64,000 bases of DNA, from contig JAWCCZ010000001.1 in the NCBI GenBank assembly GCA_038861545.1, positions 96,001 to 160,000 on the forward strand, written 5' to 3'. Position 1 is the stretch's first letter. The number at the start of each line of letters is the position of its first letter. The notes under the pieces were generated by a model. That model was given only the letters and a program-made list of their open reading frames with translations. It made no database searches and was not told where the DNA came from. The DNA is from Thermofilaceae archaeon. GTDB lineage: Archaea; Thermoproteota; Thermoprotei; Thermofilales; Thermofilaceae. Below, one piece after another: positions 33,533 through 42,391 of the stretch. The translations under genes and the position numbers were made by a program.

Positions 33533-35404
33533 TTATTTTTCTGAGTCAGCCTTGCGAATCCAGACTATCATTGATCCGGGTTCTCTGTTAGCCCACGCGT
33601 AGTAGGGAATAGCCGTAAAATCTGTTTCCCAACGCCTAGCTTTTACCTCGTTTAGTCGTGCGTAAAGCTTACCTTCCCATGCGCCGGCATCGGTTGCCCA
33701 AGCTTTTCCTTTAACAACAGTTATTCCTCCTAATAAATCGGCCCTATATTCGGCTTTAAGAGTGTCAGGTATTACAGCTAAGTCCCAAACATCATGACCA
33801 GGGTTGTCGACTTGTTCCAAACAGTAGATTAGGGGACCGTACCGTAGCGCAGCTCTACCGGTGTTGCATATAACATGCGGATGGGATTCCAGTAACATAG
33901 GTCCCATGTCAAACTTAATTCTAAGCAGGTCTCCCTCACTCCACTTTTTCTGTATTTTTGCATAGGAGCCTGAATGAACATGATTGAATTTTTCCCCATT
34001 TACCTCTATTTTTACGTTATAAGTCCAGCTGGGTATTCTTACGAAAATCGAAAAGTCGTCAATGTTTTGGGGTTTCACCTCTATTTCTATGAGTCCACTC
34101 CAAGGATACTCTGTACGCTGGATAAGCTCCACCGATCCTTCATGCATTTTAATATGTGCACTACTAGCCGCGTAGAGATGAACCCAGATACTCTGTTTAG
34201 AGGTTGTATAAATCATCCCAGGGACACACGCTATGAGCCTGGCGATGTTGGGTGGACAGCAAGCACACTCAAACCACGGCTGCCTTCTATGTTTACCCCT
34301 ATCTGCGAGAGGATTGACGTAAAAATAGAGATCTCCGCTTAGCGATATACCAGCCAAAGCGCCGTTATAGAGAGCAAGTTCCATAATGTCTGCGAATCTA
34401 GCTTCCCCACTCATCAACAGCATTCTCCAGTTCCACATAACGTTTGCGACAGCTGCGCAGGTTTCTGCATAGGCTCTCTCATTAGGTAATTCGTAAGCCT
34501 CCCCGATAGCTTCTCCTTCATGACGGGAGCCGACACCGCCAGTTACATACATTTTTCTTTCAACTAAATCGCGCCACAATCTCTCGAGCGCTGCTCGTAA
34601 TCCCGGATCTCCGTTTTCCATATAAACATCTGCAACCCCACAGCAGAGGTATAGAGCACGAACAGCATGACCAACGAGCTCCTGCATTTGCTTAAAGGGA
34701 ATATGATCTAGGTGGTATGGGCTACCTCCGATAAGTCCTCGCCCCCTTCTCTCAATAAAGATCCGCGCCAGTTCTAGGTATTCTTGTTTACCTGTCTCCC
34801 TGTATAGTTCAACTAAAGCCATTTCCACTTCGGGGTGTCCATCTACGCTTTCTGCTCGACTCGGCCCAAAAACTTCATAGATGTGATCGGCCAGCTTCAC
34901 TGCAGTGTCCAGAAGATCTCGCTTTCCGGTTGCACGATGTCGCGCTATTGCCGCTTGGAAGAGATGTCCGGCGCAGTACATTTCATGAAGATCGCGCAGG
35001 TTACTCCACCTGTCTTTTTCCCGCTCAAACGTGAAGTAAGTGTTAAGATATCCGTCAGCACCTTGCGCCTCTACTACCTCCTTTACCACTGTATCAACTA
35101 ACTGCTTCACATCTGTGCGCTGCTCATAAGCTAACGCGAAGGATGCCGCCTCTATCCACTTATACACATCGGAGTCATTAAAGACGAGTCCCTTAAAAGG
35201 GCCTTTAATTTTACCTGCAGCGCGTCGGAAATTATCAAGCCTACCGGTTTCCTCTAATAGCTTATATTGGGATGGAATAGTGACTTCAACTAAGGTGCGT
35301 AACCTTGGTGCCCAGAATGCATCGTTAAGCCTTACATTTTCTATCGGAACAGGGCTTAATAATTTGTGAGGAGTATTTTCAACGTTAACTATTACCGTTG
35401 GCAC
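33533..35404 (-). CDS. Glycoside hydrolase family 127 (beta-L-arabinofuranosidase-like)
   Basis: DSDVYKWIEA, HEMYCAGH, GHPEVEMALV, GHAVRA, AYAETCA, ACCPPN. Confidence 0.93.
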   Translation of the reverse strand: MPTVIVNVENTPHKLLSPVPIENVRLNDAFWAPRLRTLVEVTIPSQYKLLEETGRLDNFRRAAGKIKGPFKGLVFNDSDVYKWIEAASFALAYEQRTDVKQLVDTVVKEVVEAQGADGYLNTYFTFEREKDRWSNLRDLHEMYCAGHLFQAAIARHRATGKRDLLDTAVKLADHIYEVFGPSRAESVDGHPEVEMALVELYRETGKQEYLELARIFIERRGRGLIGGSPYHLDHIPFKQMQELVGHAVRALYLCCGVADVYMENGDPGLRAALERLWRDLVERKMYVTGGVGSRHEGEAIGEAYELPNERAYAETCAAVANVMWNWRMLLMSGEARFADIMELALYNGALAGISLSGDLYFYVNPLADRGKHRRQPWFECACCPPNIARLIACVPGMIYTTSKQSIWVHLYAASSAHIKMHEGSVELIQRTEYPWSGLIEIEVKPQNIDDFSIFVRIPSWTYNVKIEVNGEKFNHVHSGSYAKIQKKWSEGDLLRIKFDMGPMLLESHPHVICNTGRAALRYGPLIYCLEQVDNPGHDVWDLAVIPDTLKAEYRADLLGGITVVKGKAWATDAGAWEGKLYARLNEVKARRWETDFTAIPYYAWANREPGSMIVWIRKADSEK

Positions 35405-35480
35405 AGGAATATATTTAGGCTTATAATAAAAGTTATACCGATAAAGCTAAAACTCAGACCTTTAGTTTAAGCTGAACAGT

Positions 35481-36245
35481 ATGAGCGATCAATGGGAGAA
35501 ACTTGTAGACGAGGCTAGGTCCACGCTTAGGAAATTCGAGGAACTGCAACTTGAGCTAAAAGATTACGAAAGGAAGCGCAGCGAGATAGTCCGCATGTAT
35601 TCTACAGGCCAGGTTTCCAAGGAAGTGTTCGATAATCTTGTATCAGATTTACGGGTGAAATTATTCCCTTTAGTTAAAAGCTACTTCGAGCTGAAAGGTA
35701 AACTTAGAGATTTAGAGAGCCAACTGCAGCTCACTGTAACCAAGCTCAGCGTCGAAACCAAAGCTGCCGGCGAACCCTATAGAGGTAGCTTTGAAATCGA
35801 AAGGGAACAAAGGATAAGACAAGCTTTAAACAGGCTCGGGGGAACACTTGAGAACGTAAGGGCAGCTTTAAAGGCGACGAACCCGGAGAACGAGCTGCGG
35901 CTTTTCGATGTCATACTTGATGAACTTGATAAGGGTGAAGGGAATACATGGAAACCAGCTATTAAGGAAGTTCTAGATGCCTGGTCGCGCATCCGCCTAA
36001 CTTATGCAAGTAGATCTGAGGAGATGGAGCGCCAAATTGAGCAACTCAATGACTCACTAAGGGAACTGGAGGTACGGTTCTTGGTAGGGGAGTTTGATAG
36101 GGCTGAGTATGAGACCCGGCGATCGGCCTTGGAGAGAGAAATAAGTGAACTGCGATCTCAATTAGAGGGTTTACAGGAGAGGCTAGAAGATCTAGACCTT
36201 ACAGCAGCTAGGTGCAGGAGGTTTCTTGAAGGGTGGTTAACTTGA
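35481..36245 (+). CDS. Soluble CdvA-like coiled-coil protein
   Basis: All-helical E/K/R/L-rich sequence with two motifs, RMYSTGQVSKEVFDNL and ELEVRFLVGEFDRAEYET. Confidence 0.7.
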   Translation: MSDQWEKLVDEARSTLRKFEELQLELKDYERKRSEIVRMYSTGQVSKEVFDNLVSDLRVKLFPLVKSYFELKGKLRDLESQLQLTVTKLSVETKAAGEPYRGSFEIEREQRIRQALNRLGGTLENVRAALKATNPENELRLFDVILDELDKGEGNTWKPAIKEVLDAWSRIRLTYASRSEEMERQIEQLNDSLRELEVRFLVGEFDRAEYETRRSALEREISELRSQLEGLQERLEDLDLTAARCRRFLEGWLT

Positions 36246-38905
36246 AGATTCTGAAGCTGATTATCGGAACATTAGTGGGGTTAGCGCTGCTGACCGTTAC
36301 TATTCGATGCGAAGGTGGTGTAGGTGTTAGGGAAGTTGCGTTTTTTAACCCTTTACCAAGTACCTATAAGGGCATAGTTAACTTAAATCTTAACTTTGCG
36401 GAGGGAGAAGCATATAATGGCACTATTAGAGTGTTCGATGAGTTGGGCAGAGAAGTACCTTTTCAACTACTAGACTGTAGCCTATATACTTCAGGTTATT
36501 ATCGCAGCTGTAAACTTATGATTTTAGCAAATGTTCCAGGAATGGGGGTTTCTAAGTACACGGTAACATATCTTTCCTCACCCCCTCCCCTTAACGTTAG
36601 CATACAAGGTTTAATTGTTACTTTGAGTAACCTAACGTTAACGTTATTCAACGTGACGGGGTCTTATGTTGTTAATTTAACCGACGCGATTACGATAAAG
36701 GGTCCCGGCTACACGGCCATATTCAGTAATTTATCACTTGCACAGCTGAAGTTCGACGGTGTAGCGGCAAATTTGGTATACTACGACTGGCCATTTACTG
36801 GCTTCGTGCTAGCATCAGGAGAAAAAATTATAGCGAACGGTTATGATCTGAAAAACTGTAGTGTTTCGCTTGTAGTAAACGGGTCGTTAGTTTCAGTTGT
36901 AAAGCAAGTATGTCGCGGCGGAGGCTTTGAGCTTAGGCAAAACTTTACATTTACCGGTGTTACCTCAACTGTTAAAGTGGATTCATTACTTAGATTAACG
37001 GGTAACGGGACTCTATATTACCCTTACCTTAGGATCCCGGCGCTCGGAATAAACGAGGTTCAGGCCAATGAAATTTTATATACTCTAGAGCGTGCACGGA
37101 GCTTTGTTCCAGCGCCCAGATGGTTAGCGCTTAAAATCAACGATAAGTGGCTGGGAGTTCTAGTTAATTACACCTCGATACGCCTTAGTCAATACTTGGG
37201 AGAGCTTAATTCTACACTTAGAAACTTGTACGCTAACGAGACTAGACCGGCCATTAGATCAAAATACTTAGCGCAGATTAAGACGTTATCTAATATGTCA
37301 AGGCTTTTCCTAGCACGTGAAAGACTACCCGAGGCGAATCTAACAGCTTTACTTCTCGAGGCTGAACAGGTGAAGAGTTCGATGAACTATCATATTCTAT
37401 TATCAAATTTAACTTCGCTCATAGAAGAGCCTGAAGGGATTTCTCGCAGATTAATATTAGTTCCTGGAAGCGATTCCTTAAACGTAATTTACCAGGTTAA
37501 CCGAACTCCTCTTGAGATTAGAACGTCAGTATTGCTAGGCGTCTTCGAAGACCCAGATTCATGGGCCCGTTCACTTTTGTATAGTGATGCTATCGGTGTA
37601 ACCGCCTTCTACGCGCCGATAGCATCTCGCCTCACTGTTCCAGCTACAGCTTTTGTAGACGACATACTTCTTATTAGAGTCGATATCGTCCCAGCCCGTA
37701 CTTTGAAGAATGTAACTATTGAGTTAATTTATCCCAGAAACGCCTTCAAACTTCTAGAGGGCGCTGAAAACATTAATGTTACGGCTATTTCGGCACCTAA
37801 GTCATATGAATGGATTCTACAAGCTATCTATGAAGGTGTGTGGACTGTTAGTGTAAATGTCACTGGAGGGGGTGGATCACTGCTCGCTAGCAGAGAGGTC
37901 AATGTATCTCTTCCCTCACTAGTTCCAGGCTTTCAATTAGTTTCAAGGAGCTTTAATTTAACCGTTACATGCGTGGATCTTAACGGTAAACCCCTTAGCG
38001 GTTATGCTTTGAATCTTTATGACAATTCGACAAAGAAACTAATTTTCAGCGAATTTGTGAATGAAAGTGGACGCGCAAGTTTTCTAAACATAACCAGCGG
38101 AGTGTACGTCCTGGAAGTAACAGATGGCATATACAGCTCGATGAAAGAGTTATACGTTCTGTCTAACAGGAATGTGACGGTAACAATAGCTCGGGCTGAC
38201 TTAAAAATCTCAGTCGAACTCGAGGACGGGACTCCTCTCGTTCAAACTCCGGTTTATGTTAGAGATATTAATGGAAGCTTAGTATGCATTGGATTCACGA
38301 ATAGTAGCGGTGTCCTAACGTGTAAAGCTCTGCCACTTGGAGATTATACAATTTCGGTTCGCTGGCGCGGTGGAATTGCAGGCTATACAAGTGTCACGCT
38401 ACGTAATGATTCATCTGTTACTATAAGAGGGGTTGTTAGGCGGGTAACCGTAGCGGTATCGTTGGCTGGAAAGCCAGCAACTGGCGCTATAGTTGAAGTT
38501 TATACAGTTGGTGGATCTCCAGTAAGTACTGCGACTATAGATGAGAACGGCCTAGCTACATTCTACCTGCTACCAGGACCATATAAGTTCGTAGCTACAA
38601 AGGGTCAGTATACTGCGGGTAGGACCACCGACATTAGAGCCGAGCGTTTTGTTGAGCTGAAATTAGAGGTGTCCTTAAACTTATGGTTGCTCATCGTGGT
38701 CACCGTAGTTTTATGGGTTTTAACGGTCTATATATGGTATAGAAGGACTAGCTATATTTACAGAGAAAAAGAGAGGTACAGGCGTCTTCTCCAAAGATTA
38801 GAGGAACTTTACAGTAGAGGGGAAGTCGAGGAAAAATACTACTTAAAGCTCAGACAAGAATACGAAGAAAAATTAAACAAGCTGAGCCGGGTTGACCTCG
38901 TATGA
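36233..38905 (+). CDS. Single-pass surface glycoprotein with carboxypeptidase-regulatory-like (Ig/transthyretin) repeats and a cytoplasmic CdvA-like tail
   Basis: Signal peptide; about 29 N-x-S/T sequons; three V.D..GKPL...G......L..G.Y repeats; TM LWLLIVVTVVLWVLTVYIWY; tail LEELYSRGEVEEKYYLKL. Confidence 0.8.
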   Translation: MVNLKILKLIIGTLVGLALLTVTIRCEGGVGVREVAFFNPLPSTYKGIVNLNLNFAEGEAYNGTIRVFDELGREVPFQLLDCSLYTSGYYRSCKLMILANVPGMGVSKYTVTYLSSPPPLNVSIQGLIVTLSNLTLTLFNVTGSYVVNLTDAITIKGPGYTAIFSNLSLAQLKFDGVAANLVYYDWPFTGFVLASGEKIIANGYDLKNCSVSLVVNGSLVSVVKQVCRGGGFELRQNFTFTGVTSTVKVDSLLRLTGNGTLYYPYLRIPALGINEVQANEILYTLERARSFVPAPRWLALKINDKWLGVLVNYTSIRLSQYLGELNSTLRNLYANETRPAIRSKYLAQIKTLSNMSRLFLARERLPEANLTALLLEAEQVKSSMNYHILLSNLTSLIEEPEGISRRLILVPGSDSLNVIYQVNRTPLEIRTSVLLGVFEDPDSWARSLLYSDAIGVTAFYAPIASRLTVPATAFVDDILLIRVDIVPARTLKNVTIELIYPRNAFKLLEGAENINVTAISAPKSYEWILQAIYEGVWTVSVNVTGGGGSLLASREVNVSLPSLVPGFQLVSRSFNLTVTCVDLNGKPLSGYALNLYDNSTKKLIFSEFVNESGRASFLNITSGVYVLEVTDGIYSSMKELYVLSNRNVTVTIARADLKISVELEDGTPLVQTPVYVRDINGSLVCIGFTNSSGVLTCKALPLGDYTISVRWRGGIAGYTSVTLRNDSSVTIRGVVRRVTVAVSLAGKPATGAIVEVYTVGGSPVSTATIDENGLATFYLLPGPYKFVATKGQYTAGRTTDIRAERFVELKLEVSLNLWLLIVVTVVLWVLTVYIWYRRTSYIYREKERYRRLLQRLEELYSRGEVEEKYYLKLRQEYEEKLNKLSRVDLV

Positions 38906-41900
38906 AGGGTTTTGCCTTATTATTGGTAATACTTGCTTTCACAGTAATAGTTGTAGCTGAGCCTCAAACCCGATTCTTGGTGGTAGTGAAGGAGTATCCG
39001 AAAAACGAACCGGTTAAGGGAGTAATGCTCAATATGACTCTTCAAGTCGATGCAAAAACCTATAGATTCAGTATAATTACAAATCAAGTTGGAGCATGGG
39101 GTACTCAACTGGCAAGTGTACCGCGCGAGGTATATCTAGTGGATTTATCGTTTTCTCCTGCTAACTACACAGGATACTCATATCTCAATCCCTCTATCCC
39201 AATCCGAGTAGCGGATTCTCTAATCGAGGAACTTGACTACAGGGCTATGTTTGATCGTAGTTTGAATACTACTCTTTTCACTGGGTTAAGAATCCCGTTG
39301 CAGATAACTCAAGAGGGAAACCTGACAATTTTACGATGTGTTATATGGCTTACTCCTGGAAAACTTGTTAACGTTAGCATGTTAGACCCTATGACTCGTA
39401 AACCAGCAATGTTAACCATAAAGCCTGGTGTTCCAGTTACAGGGAGGCTTTTCTGGAGCACATACCTCCTACCCATCGGATACCCTGTTCTACTTACAGC
39501 CACTACTCCAATAGCTGGAGCTAAAGAGCTGAGGGTCTGGATAACTAATGACACAAAAACTCTTCCATGGACATATTATGCAGCCGAAGCCCTAATAGAA
39601 AACCAGTTGAGAGAAGTTATGGATTTGTTAAGGCAGCTTGAGTCGATAGGGTATTACACTGAAGACATGAGGTTAGACGTAGACGCCCTTAAAGCAGTTG
39701 CTCAGCAAACCCTCTTTCTCTTCAAACAAGGCAATTATACTTCGGCAATCGGAGCGACTCTGAGTCTTGTCAATGGAGCATCTTCGCTGAAAAGCCGGGT
39801 CAACAGCCTTTTTAGTTACTCTCACCTTGCAGCTTTAGGAATAATCATACTCACTCTAGCATTTGCTCACACTTTCTCGCTTCTAATGTTTGAACGTGGA
39901 CGAAAGCTACATGTTTTAAGGTTCATACTATTGTTAATTCTTCTTTCATTTTCTACTGCTACGTCATCTACGATTAGACTGGCAGCAGCTAGTTTACTGG
40001 GAACCTTAGGCGTACCGCTAGCTATTCTTGATGTACCTACTCTGATAGCTGCGACCGTTGTCATGGGTTTTTTAGCCTACGCGATATTCTTACTGCTTTC
40101 CTTCGTAGCCGGCCCGGTAAGAGGGTTCTGGCTTTATCTGGCTGTCCGGTACATTAAAGCAAAGCGTCTAAGATCAATATTAATTCTGGCTACTATGATC
40201 TTAGTTATAGCTTCAACTCTAGCGGTTTCCGGTTTTACGCTTGGGTCTACAGTAATTAGAAAAGAATGGTTGGGGGCTGGGTTTAAAGGGTTAGACGTCG
40301 AAGTAAATCTAATAAGAAAACCATACGGTTTAAATAGCTCAGAGATTGAATGGCTTATTTTCTCGACAGATGCTGTAGATATAGGACGTATGGCAATCAT
40401 ACCGGAGCGCTACCCAGGCGTTCTATTGGCTACACGTGAAGGCACAGTAGGATCCTCAATCATAACTAATTTAGTAGCTATTGACATAAAATTCGCTATA
40501 AAGAACTTCAACTTGTCGGCTCACGTCGTAGAGGGGAGACTACCACGCGACGGCGAACCAGAAGTAGTAGTTTCTAAAACCTTATCCAACATCCTAAGAG
40601 TTGGCGAATCTATATGGATTTTCTTCGCTCAGCCAAGCGTGCAAGGTCCGCCTATACCGGCAGGGCCTGTATGGGATGCACCAGTAAAGGTAGTGGGGTT
40701 CTTTGACCCATTATCGCTTAATTCAACTTTGGATCCGGAGCTTAGACCACTTTTCGGCGATTATCCCAGTGTAACCCTCATGTTAATAGCACCCTATAAC
40801 CCACTGGCTAATCGTCTTTCTACGAGTAGGGTTTGGCTTATCTCGGAAAACTCTACGGCTGTAGACCTGACCGCTCGGTTAACGTTAGCATCCTTGCCTG
40901 CCACGGTACATATCTTACAGGGGAAAAGAGTGATTACCTACGAACGCGCAACCCAGTTTTCCTTTAAAGGTACAGAGACTATCCTATTGCTAACTATCGC
41001 TGCCTTGATGAATGCTGCTGCTATGCTAGGCCACGCAGAGGATAGACGCAGGGACATGTATGTAATAGCTACTCTGGGGGCTAACCCCAAAAACCTGTTT
41101 TACGCTATGATGACAGAGGCTACCATAATTGGCGTAGTCTCGTCCTACATAGGCTGGGCAGTGGCCCCATTAATTATATATGTTTCTAGTCTTTTAGTTA
41201 TGCTGACAGGTGCTACACCAATAAGTTTTACACCGCTACCAGTGGAAAGCCTATTCTACGCAACTGCAGTAGGTTTAGCCGTCGTTGTGATCTCGGCTTA
41301 TATACCTTCTCGAAGAGTAAGTGGACTCTCCCGAATGGGTAGGGAAGAGAGGAAAGTAATATCGTCCAGCGAACTGAAGTTAGTTGACGGGATGGCGGTA
41401 TACGAGCTTCCGATAAGAGTCTCTGTCTTTGAAAGTGAGGCCTTATACAGGTATCTGAAGGAAATACTACCTAAGAAAGATATACTGAACGAAGAGCTCT
41501 ACCTTGACGGAACATTCGCTTTTGCGTTCGCGTTCTTCCCACCGCACATGAGGGGGTCTATGGTTACCTGCAGACTAAGAACTACTAAGAGGGGTGACAG
41601 TTTAACGCTTTTGCTAGAAGTTCCAGAGGAATTCAGGAGATACATGTACCTTAGCGATGTAATTTACGCTTTAGAGAACAAGCTCTTAGATTATTCCAAA
41701 TGGAGGGACAGCCAGTTCAGGTATCAGATATTGAGATATGCACCTAGAAGGGAGGCTCCAACTCTTGATTCATTGCTCGAAAGGGGTAGGGAAGCCATGA
41801 TCAAAGCACGCGAGATGGAGCTAAAGCTGAGGAGACTCGATGAAATGAAAGCAACGATCTCGGCTAGCTTATACGCTGACTACGAGAAAAAGTATAAGAG

Positions 41901-42156
41901 ACAACATAGTTTACTTATAAGAGAGTTACTAACTTTGTCCCTCAGGCTTGAGTCCTTCGTCAGTCAGTTAAGGGATGAGATCAGGAAGTTGGAAATTGAA
42001 ATTGAAAAACATAGAGTAGCATATGAACTAGGAGAGATGAAAGAGGAAGAATATAGGAAGATTATTGAACCATTGAAGGCTCAACTTGATGAATATAAAG
42101 ATAGAATTAGAACTATCGAGGAAATCAATGAGTTCTTAGCTTCTCGGCGTAGATAG
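38902..42156 (+). CDS. FtsX/MacB-type permease with large ectodomain and C-terminal CdvA-like coiled coil
   Basis: LAVRYIKAKRLRSIL, VVEGRLP...EVVVS..L...LRVGE, EDRRRDMYVIATLGANP...MMTEA, AYIPSRRVS; tail HRVAYELGEMKEEEY; ATGA overlap. Confidence 0.85.
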   Translation: MKGFALLLVILAFTVIVVAEPQTRFLVVVKEYPKNEPVKGVMLNMTLQVDAKTYRFSIITNQVGAWGTQLASVPREVYLVDLSFSPANYTGYSYLNPSIPIRVADSLIEELDYRAMFDRSLNTTLFTGLRIPLQITQEGNLTILRCVIWLTPGKLVNVSMLDPMTRKPAMLTIKPGVPVTGRLFWSTYLLPIGYPVLLTATTPIAGAKELRVWITNDTKTLPWTYYAAEALIENQLREVMDLLRQLESIGYYTEDMRLDVDALKAVAQQTLFLFKQGNYTSAIGATLSLVNGASSLKSRVNSLFSYSHLAALGIIILTLAFAHTFSLLMFERGRKLHVLRFILLLILLSFSTATSSTIRLAAASLLGTLGVPLAILDVPTLIAATVVMGFLAYAIFLLLSFVAGPVRGFWLYLAVRYIKAKRLRSILILATMILVIASTLAVSGFTLGSTVIRKEWLGAGFKGLDVEVNLIRKPYGLNSSEIEWLIFSTDAVDIGRMAIIPERYPGVLLATREGTVGSSIITNLVAIDIKFAIKNFNLSAHVVEGRLPRDGEPEVVVSKTLSNILRVGESIWIFFAQPSVQGPPIPAGPVWDAPVKVVGFFDPLSLNSTLDPELRPLFGDYPSVTLMLIAPYNPLANRLSTSRVWLISENSTAVDLTARLTLASLPATVHILQGKRVITYERATQFSFKGTETILLLTIAALMNAAAMLGHAEDRRRDMYVIATLGANPKNLFYAMMTEATIIGVVSSYIGWAVAPLIIYVSSLLVMLTGATPISFTPLPVESLFYATAVGLAVVVISAYIPSRRVSGLSRMGREERKVISSSELKLVDGMAVYELPIRVSVFESEALYRYLKEILPKKDILNEELYLDGTFAFAFAFFPPHMRGSMVTCRLRTTKRGDSLTLLLEVPEEFRRYMYLSDVIYALENKLLDYSKWRDSQFRYQILRYAPRREAPTLDSLLERGREAMIKAREMELKLRRLDEMKATISASLYADYEKKYKRQHSLLIRELLTLSLRLESFVSQLRDEIRKLEIEIEKHRVAYELGEMKEEEYRKIIEPLKAQLDEYKDRIRTIEEINEFLASRRR

Positions 42157-42391
42157 TAATTTTTAAATATATTTTACCGAAAACTTTATTAATTTATTCT
42201 TTAATCATATTTTTAACTATCACGCGTTTTAACTATTTGTTTAAGTCTTTATGTATTAAAGTACATTAAAATTCTCTGCATCTATAGAGATTCTTAAGTT
42301 AATTGTGCCAGTAATGTAGCGGGTTTTAGTCCACTATGCAGCTCTCGGAGAGCAGTGCTTTCCACCGCGTGTGACATTGTCAAGTTCTCGG

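Follow-up and report, generated by a model that had tools for sequence, protein, structure and literature searches.

A three-gene operon of a Thermofilaceae archaeon in which a soluble protein, a surface glycoprotein and an FtsX/MacB-fold membrane protein carry CdvA-like helical modules

The membrane domains of type VII ATP-binding cassette (ABC) proteins, of the MacB/FtsX kind, are understood to transmit ATPase-driven movements across the membrane. The division scaffold CdvA of Sulfolobus islandicus, known from the structures 9s9g, 9s9h and 9s9i, is built from a PRC domain together with a coiled coil of three helices; in the filament the coils contact each other head to tail, and mutations at A90, L94, I100, I149, M153 and I156 abolish polymerisation (PMC12818579). 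For the Thermoproteales, a diverged CdvA orthologue and a CdvA-related pair, arCOG03733 and arCOG03734, have been reported, and these CdvA-like families were proposed to act in division (Makarova et al. 2024, PMC11188069; Zhao et al. 2023, preprint, PMC10120694). Neither paper contains an FtsX fusion or a gene triad like the one dealt with here, the words "FtsX" and "permease" being absent from both, and no paper describing this operon was found in the literature searched. The present work concerns three overlapping genes, ORF1, ORF2 and ORF3, in a 64-kb stretch of DNA (the window) from a Thermofilaceae archaeon (GCA_038861545.1, contig JAWCCZ010000001.1, positions 96,001 to 160,000) whose genome has 1.63 Mb and is 92% complete. 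We propose, with a probability of about 0.5, that they encode an envelope-spanning complex whose parts are joined beneath the membrane through helical modules of CdvA type.

The three open reading frames (ORFs) are co-oriented on the + strand and overlap, spanning positions 35481-42156. ORF1 (35481..36245; 254 amino acids, aa) encodes a soluble, all-helical protein with no transmembrane (TM) helix and with two CdvA-type hairpin motifs, ORF2 (36233..38905; 890 aa) a surface glycoprotein with a C-terminal TM anchor, and ORF3 (38902..42156; 1084 aa) a giant membrane protein of FtsX/MacB fold. The overlap of ORF1 and ORF2 amounts to 13 nucleotides (nt) if ORF2 starts at GTG and to 4 nt (TTGA) if it starts at the TTG at 36242, which is the start taken in the public annotation and gives a product of 887 aa; ORF2 and ORF3 overlap as ATGA. 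Both flanks are unrelated and lie on the opposite strand, with a GH127 gene upstream (divergent) and carA/carB downstream (convergent). The three genes are one operon. The same layout had been described in a first-pass annotation of the stretch made from the sequence alone, and its span, overlaps and flanks were found correct on checking.

The Pfam family CdvA (PF18822) was the best Pfam match of the shared-coil region in all three window proteins, with 20.6 bits for ORF1, 20.5 bits for the ORF3 tail alone and 16.3 bits for the ORF2 tail, each below the gathering cut-off of 30 bits. Four ORF3 orthologues passed this cut-off (30.4, 30.3, 32.5, and 30.1 bits), and Pfam CdvA was the top match of 8/8 ORF3 tails (best E 1.7e-6), six of eight ORF1 proteins and four of eight ORF2 tails. 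Against a reference CdvA profile of seven proteins, six of them from loci with cdvA beside ESCRT-III and Vps4 genes, hhalign gave a probability of 96.5% for the ORF3 tail (E 7.4e-10 across 121 columns, with the two motifs aligned in register), 93.4% for the C-terminal half of ORF1 (E 2.6e-7) and 31.6% for the ORF2 tail on CdvA motif 1 (E 5e-4 vs. 0.19 in the reversed control). The operon proteins matched one another as well, ORF1 and the ORF3 tail at 78% and the ORF2 tail and motif 1 of ORF1 at 49% (E 1.7e-4 vs. 0.16 in the reversed control). In a search of all 4638 genomic ORFs, the ORF3-tail profile recovered ORF1 as the next match after itself (E 4.6e-7), and the operon-verified CdvA profile placed ORF1 first (E 1.8e-7) with ORF3 also listed. 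When PDB sequences were searched with the profile of the ORF3 C-terminus, S. islandicus CdvA came out on top, and the modelled ORF3 tail is a three-helix coiled coil as in the CdvA crystal structure, a match that stands out from the other helical ones.

The motif might nevertheless be an ordinary coiled coil shared by coincidence, the three proteins being independent and their gene order merely inherited. Its literal form is statistically undistinctive: the consensus given in the first-pass annotation, used as a regular expression, matched 0 ORFs in the genome and in a loose form about 5% of them, so that the motif string alone is not significant. Weak Pfam CdvA matches occurred in 10/14 control genomes at E <= 1, and the reversed profile of the ORF3 tail still reached 58% against CdvA, the value for ORF1 being 8%. 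However, forward hhalign scores were twice the reversed ones (66 vs. 35, 54 vs. 27, and 29 vs. 13), with E-values better by five orders of magnitude; column-shuffled controls gave scores <=18 and probabilities <1%, and at E <= 1e-5 matches to Pfam CdvA in the control genomes were obtained in Sulfolobus only. The structural match to CdvA is distinct from the other helical matches, the triad is kept across classes despite changed flanks and is lost as a unit, and the tail of ORF2 is far better conserved than its ectodomain, all of which makes a coincidence highly improbable. Coiled-coil periodicity accounts for part, not most, of the CdvA signal, and the coils of ORF1 and ORF3 are, as judged from profile comparison, homologous to the CdvA coil, with the ORF2 tail matching motif 1. 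As to the first-pass annotation, the motif copies lie where it had placed them and its written consensus is only approximate and not distinctive; the CdvA likeness it had noticed stood up to the reversed and shuffled controls as specific by profile and fold, beyond a generic coiled coil. Two other families considered for the motif were rejected. SHOCT (PF09851) matched sporadically, in 2/8 ORF3 tails (best E 0.0034) and 1/8 ORF2 tails (E 0.0086), far under its cut-off, and GvpG matched recurrently yet more weakly than CdvA; for the ORF2 and ORF3 tails both CdvA and GvpG ranked above SHOCT.

Conservation of the hairpins was followed position by position. Motif 1 of ORF1 (35577..35636, aa 33-52) is centred on G43, and the C-terminal CdvA-like region of this protein (35943..36218, aa 155-246) contains motif 2; the coil of ORF3 (41764..42150, aa 955-1083) comprises helices at 955-984, 988-1042, and 1048-1083. 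Of the 11-12 orthologues, which reach down to about 25% identity, at least 10 retain the Gly of the motif, and conservation extends to most of the aromatic or hydrophobic positions on either side. G43 is present in 10/11 ORF1 orthologues, and R199, G203, and E204 of motif 2 are invariant in the eight orthologues of alignment A1. According to the PDB alignment, the six CdvA residues whose mutation abolishes polymerisation fall exactly in the two motifs pointed out at first pass. In 11-12 orthologues of each protein, the residues corresponding to L94, I100, and M153 are hydrophobic throughout ORF1 and ORF2; in ORF3 they are largely so, apart from a few cases of Q/T. Charged residues predominate at the positions of A90 and I149 (in ORF1 E/K/D at the former and R/K/E at the latter, in ORF2 R/K at A90), ORF3 having a mixture of R/K/T/I at A90 and E/Q/D at I149; at I156, ORF1 is mixed and ORF3 polar. 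Neither ORF1 nor the cytoplasmic portion of ORF3 showed a PRC-type segment, the alignment with CdvA covering the coil only. There is no E3B (CdvB-binding) peptide in ORF1 or ORF3, both of which end with the coil, and no cdvB or vps4 partner adjoins the operon, whose neighbours are GH127 and carAB.

ORF3 contains a single FtsX domain (PF02687, residues 694-809, E 1.6e-10). In its AlphaFold2 model (21 homologues; mean predicted local distance difference test score, pLDDT, of 82.4) residues ~406-816 matched LolC/LolE, MacB, the Streptococcus pneumoniae transporter 5xu1, YbbP, HrtB, and BceB in Foldseek searches (E 2e-9 to 1e-4). The MacB/LolC-type core (40117..41334, aa 406-811) is formed by TM1, a Porter/Sabre-like outer domain (445-690) and TM2-TM4, which confirmed the four-TM FtsX domain. 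It is preceded by an N-terminal glycosylated ectodomain (38959..39801), with a beta-sandwich at aa 22-213 and a helical stalk at 223-300 according to the AlphaFold2 secondary structure, and by extra TM helices (39808..40116, aa 303-405). After the core come a family-specific cytoplasmic alpha/beta domain (41365..41736, aa 822-945), which gave no Pfam match and no usable ESM Atlas match, and the coil. Sequons are confined to two predicted outer regions, the N-terminal ones lying at 44-278. The FtsX signature reads E713...G726...E739, and E713, R715, D718, G726, P729, and E739 of the TM2-TM3 coupling region show little or no variation within the family. Conservation in ORF3 is highest in the alpha/beta domain and the coil (26-52% identity vs. 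14-34% for the outer domains).

An ABC ATPase was found neither in the window nor in the 16 distinct related loci that were collected in addition to it, and the nearest ABC_tran match to ORF3 is 48 kb off. The complete C-terminal module of ORF3 was met with in only about 25 of 1.84 billion cluster representatives; all of those scanned have an FtsX domain and none an ATPase. A nutrient ABC operon, the counter-reading raised in the first-pass annotation, was rejected, as the 16 loci hold neither an ATPase nor a binding protein. A different case is that of a conventional type VII ABC extractor or exporter, MacB- or LolCDE-like, in which ORF3 would use an ATPase encoded elsewhere, with ORF2 as surface partner or substrate (cf. 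EnvC, MacA, or a lipoprotein) and with ORF1 and the coils having only regulatory or dimerising roles. It is favoured by the MacB/LolC fold with its Porter/Sabre outer domain and by the coupling-helix signature kept across the family. Moreover, an ABC ATPase adjoins only two of the 13 FtsX-domain genes in the genome, so that use in trans by the other 11 would be general, and the genome encodes a permease-less MacB-type ATPase, C5_60848_61594. Yet no linked ATPase appeared in the 16 loci, which represent three lineages, nor any fusion among the ~25 family clusters, and the best-conserved parts of ORF3, placed at the cytoplasmic C-terminus after TM4, are a non-ATPase domain and the coil. A further point against an ATPase in trans is that orphan FtsX families which retain the signature are known, such as the Acidobacteria permeases ADOP (TIGR03434). 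Taken together, we consider an exporter with an ATPase in trans rather unlikely. ORF3 itself was rejected as a member of ADOP, its best NCBIfam match (E 4.8e-9), since it scored 34.9 bits vs. a cut-off of 622.3 and has one FtsX domain, not two.

Two sets of genes elsewhere in this genome (G000) belong to the same context. C5_60848_61594 (G000:C5:60848-61594, +), a MacB/LolD-type ABC ATPase of 248 aa with no membrane permease within 2.5 kb and 71% identity to the FtsX-adjacent ATPase C3:20764-21492, is a candidate for an ATPase that the orphan FtsX proteins would have in common. Six FtsX-domain paralogues of giant size (~1500 aa) with no ABC ATPase nearby (C1:469279-473721, C7:20178-24650, C6:37167-41789, C1:397986-402521, C1:240885-245393, and C2:216643-221223) form a separate expanded orphan-FtsX system, each of them adjoining a 630-670-aa multi-TM protein that ends in W-x-W/L-P-W/F/Y.

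ORF2 begins with an N-terminal signal/anchor helix and ends with a TM helix (38678..38746, aa 816-838 by hydropathy) and a 52-aa tail predicted to be cytoplasmic (38747..38902, aa 839-890). All of its 29 N-x-S/T sequons are in the ectodomain (36314..38671, aa 28-813). In the structure model (pLDDT 80.6), aa ~30-460 adopt a galactose-mutarotase-like beta-supersandwich with a helical insert, and the stalk is made of one immunoglobulin (Ig)/MG-like domain (462-562) followed by three prealbumin-like (CarboxypepD_reg/SpaA) domains. From there one helix runs unbroken from 816 to 861, turns at G863 and continues as a second helix at 867-889, thus giving a hairpin in which the Y860 equivalent (Y/W), G863, and Y870 are kept in 11/11 orthologues. 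Ectodomain length varies threefold among orthologues (460-1559 aa) and the TM helix and tail are conserved. The S-layer stalk protein SlaB (8qox_B), considered as a possible relation of ORF2, stood at rank 46 in its Foldseek list (E 4e-9), a match that generic Ig-like repeats would explain. The sequons, the Foldseek matches and the signal/anchor and TM helices uphold the earlier description of ORF2 as a glycosylated surface protein, as the FtsX domain and MacB/LolC fold (Pfam, Foldseek) do for that of ORF3 as an FtsX/MacB permease.

Similar tails were also seen outside the operon. Hairpins like the ORF2 tail (E 1e-7 to 1e-12 with the tail profile) end smaller proteins of 170-591 aa with no ORF3-like neighbour in Ca. 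Methanodesulfokora washburnensis (L074) and Bathyarchaeia (L076-L081), so the TM-plus-hairpin tail of ORF2 appears to be a reusable module. In the genome under study, the gene at G000:C5:51789-53381 (+), with no FtsX gene adjoining, encodes a protein of 530 aa in which a signal peptide and a glycosylated ectodomain are combined with one TM helix and a cytoplasmic tail that matches the ORF3-tail profile (E 4e-4) and contains a Y-E-R-Q-I-A-P-L-K stretch like that of ORF3; it would be a second membrane glycoprotein with a CdvA-like tail. A 1675-aa member of the ORF3 family (P0064) matched GH15 (glucoamylase-like) weakly in the ectodomain at its N-terminus, which agrees with the sugar-binding-type fold of the ORF2 ectodomain.

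The order was surveyed in 41 genomes. Full-length ORF3 orthologues were present in 12 of them, spanning four families, and ORF1 orthologues (E < 1e-84) occurred in exactly the same 12. In genus g9 the module was found in 0/8 genomes, several of which are closed and five of which are 99% complete in one or two contigs. The full triad was present in 13 of the 16 related loci, the others being one cut by a contig end, one without ORF1 nearby and one with ORF3 alone. The order ORF1-ORF2-ORF3 is kept in distant members (~30% identity) whose flanks are unrelated, and it recurs in a sister family within the class and beyond the class in others of the phylum, including Bathyarchaeia (L075). The co-conservation that the first-pass annotation had set as a check is thereby found in Thermofilales, the sister family and Bathyarchaeia. 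Two ORF3 orthologues from outside the class of the window (L060:9584-13201 and L066:9054-12653) continue past the coil with a basic linker and a zinc ribbon of four Cys, and the L066 gene adjoins neither ORF1 nor ORF2.

The first-pass annotation had assumed a lineage without CdvA-type proteins and had read the module as a possible division machine. The assumption is outdated, as the genome has a PRC-barrel CdvA-like orthologue and a pair of the arCOG03733/03734 type. The former (C1_25960_26634; G000:C1:25960-26634) has 224 aa and joins a PRC-barrel-like domain at the N-terminus to a CdvA-like coil with the motif LDESYIAGEISKETY; it was the second-best genome match of the true-CdvA profile (E 4e-6) and probably corresponds to the diverged CdvA orthologue that has been described in Thermoproteales. 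The latter consists of adjacent genes (G000:C5:100876-101667 and 100499-100879; L003:1309-2100 and L003:932-1312, both on the - strand) for a Cys-rich, Zn-ribbon-like protein of 263 aa, in which two CdvA/GvpG-like motifs occur, and a coil protein of 126 aa, and matches the description of arCOG03733/arCOG03734 in PMC11188069. FtsZ was absent from the searches of this genome, and ESCRT-III gave no Snf7 match and no match to a CdvB profile from six cdv operons (genome 92% complete). A crenactin-like gene is present, the only one of the actin family (~C1:4274); directly upstream of it lies a gene for a 75-aa protein (G000:C1:3529-3756, +) with a single SHOCT/CdvA-like motif, KGEINEEEFHEY. In five more distant carrier genomes the triad occurred alongside true CdvA (48-76 bits) in four and FtsZ in two; the genomes with such coexistence are of Bathyarchaeia type.

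These data bear on whether the operon could encode a division- or budding-coupled envelope remodeller, an archaeal analogue of FtsEX in which a CdvA-type polymer of ORF1 and the ORF3 tail would replace the input of FtsE/FtsZ/FtsA, with ORF2 as surface effector. The homology of the coil to that of a division scaffold, the lack of FtsZ and of detectable ESCRT-III in the genome, and the action of bacterial FtsX-type proteins in division (8hd0, 8i6o, and 8idb are among the structural matches) are consistent with it. Against it stands the distribution, the module being absent from 29/41 genomes of the order, including 8/8 of genus g9, and coexisting with true CdvA and, in two genomes, with FtsZ; besides, this genome already has the PRC-barrel CdvA orthologue and the Zn-ribbon pair (PMC11188069), and neither ORF1 nor ORF3 has a PRC barrel or an E3B peptide. 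A remodeller of this kind is very unlikely, and the earlier division-machine reading is weakened by the same distribution. A core division apparatus is probably the wrong reading, and a substitute for missing division machinery was rejected on phyletic grounds. Absence from most relatives and coexistence with CdvA and FtsZ point instead to an accessory system that reuses the CdvA coil.

What the data show of the proposed envelope-spanning complex are the folds, the coil homology, the operon structure, the co-inheritance and the lack of an ATPase in cis; physical contact, stoichiometry, direction of signalling and cellular role are our inference, and hetero-oligomerisation of the three coils is plausible. 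In such a complex the hairpin tips, which in CdvA make the head-to-tail polymerisation contacts, would let both ORF1 and the tail of ORF2 bind to the tail of ORF3, and ORF1 would gather units of ORF2 and ORF3 into clusters from the cytoplasmic side, as an adaptor or scaffold. The charge pattern of the contact positions may be compatible with heterotypic docking, the ORF2 tail on the motif-2 end of ORF3 and ORF1 on itself; basic R855 of ORF2 (A90 equivalent, R/K in 11/11 orthologues) would face E1035 of ORF3 (I149 equivalent, acidic or Q in all 12), and E35 and R194 would pair ORF1 molecules head to tail. The MacB-type module might then couple the state of the scaffold to the surface domains, or the reverse, and the likely output would be positioning or remodelling of surface components (S-layer, glycan-binding) and neither nutrient import nor core division.

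Several observations weigh against this proposal. The window's own three proteins score under the Pfam CdvA cut-off, and the match of the ORF2 tail taken alone is short and weak (31-49% hhalign probability). Three of the six CdvA polymerisation positions are charged in the alignments, and the PRC barrel, which CdvA needs for lateral contacts, is absent, so CdvA-like polymerisation is not assured. The FtsX signature is kept and an orphan MacB-type ATPase is encoded in the genome, and an ATP-driven mechanism in trans is therefore possible. The neighbouring genes are uninformative on the cellular role.

A bolder version of the envelope-spanning complex, which seems to us quite unlikely, is an ATPase-independent trans-envelope transducer in which a CdvA-type polymer of ORF1 and the ORF3 tail would directly drive or position the MacB/FtsX module, coupling cytoskeleton-like assembly below the membrane to where, at defined sites of division, budding or attachment, surface glycoprotein or S-layer is remodelled or placed. 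If true, it would be an archaeal counterpart of the FtsEX logic built from Cdv/ESCRT-I-type parts.

The MacB/FtsX module described here is conserved across classes of Thermoproteota without a linked ATPase and is fused to a CdvA-type coil, and both operon partners of ORF3 carry matching coil pieces. If these pieces dock, the CdvA/steadiness-box hairpin would be a general heteromeric connector in archaea, a new means of powering or gating a MacB-type transducer would be at hand, and inside-out organisation of surface glycoproteins in wall-less archaea could be approached. The hypothesis is easily testable because the interacting parts are small soluble helices.

The remaining features of the locus lie at its borders. 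A 76-nt spacer with A/T-rich boxes separates the GH127 gene from the ATG of ORF1 (35405..35480, +) and is, read by eye, a putative promoter; a T-rich run past the ORF3 stop (42157..42200, +), also read by eye, is the likely transcript end. The divergent GH127 gene (33533-35404, -) encodes a beta-L-arabinofuranosidase-like protein; it is kept beside ORF1 in close relatives (L029-L031) and not in distant loci, and conservation solely among close relatives places it outside the module.

Among described systems, the steadiness box of the ESCRT-I headpiece (Vps23/Vps28/Vps37) is like the hairpin at fold level only, with a Z that helical hairpins commonly give, and the operon proteins have no other ESCRT-I features. 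The ADOP permeases and the ORF3 family are alike in being expanded FtsX-type permeases without linked ATPases, but the former have two FtsX domains and no CdvA-type tail. The arCOG03733/03734 pair and the Thermoproteales CdvA orthologue are also CdvA-like coil proteins of the same lineages; they differ from the triad in being soluble Zn-ribbon or PRC-barrel proteins encoded elsewhere. With respect to CdvA itself (NF041007/arCOG04054), the coil is here membrane-fused (ORF3), free-standing (ORF1) or reduced to a single hairpin (ORF2), it comes without PRC barrel, E3B peptide or cdvB/vps4 partner, and half of the filament-contact residues are charged. Finally, MacB, LolC/LolE, FtsX, YbbP, and HrtB share with ORF3 the four-helix FtsX bundle, the outer domain between TM1 and TM2 and the signature motif, and large extracytoplasmic partners are common to type VII ABC systems and this operon; unlike those proteins, ORF3 has no fused or linked ATPase, bears an extra N-terminal ectodomain and TM helices, and ends in a novel alpha/beta domain followed by a CdvA-type coil.

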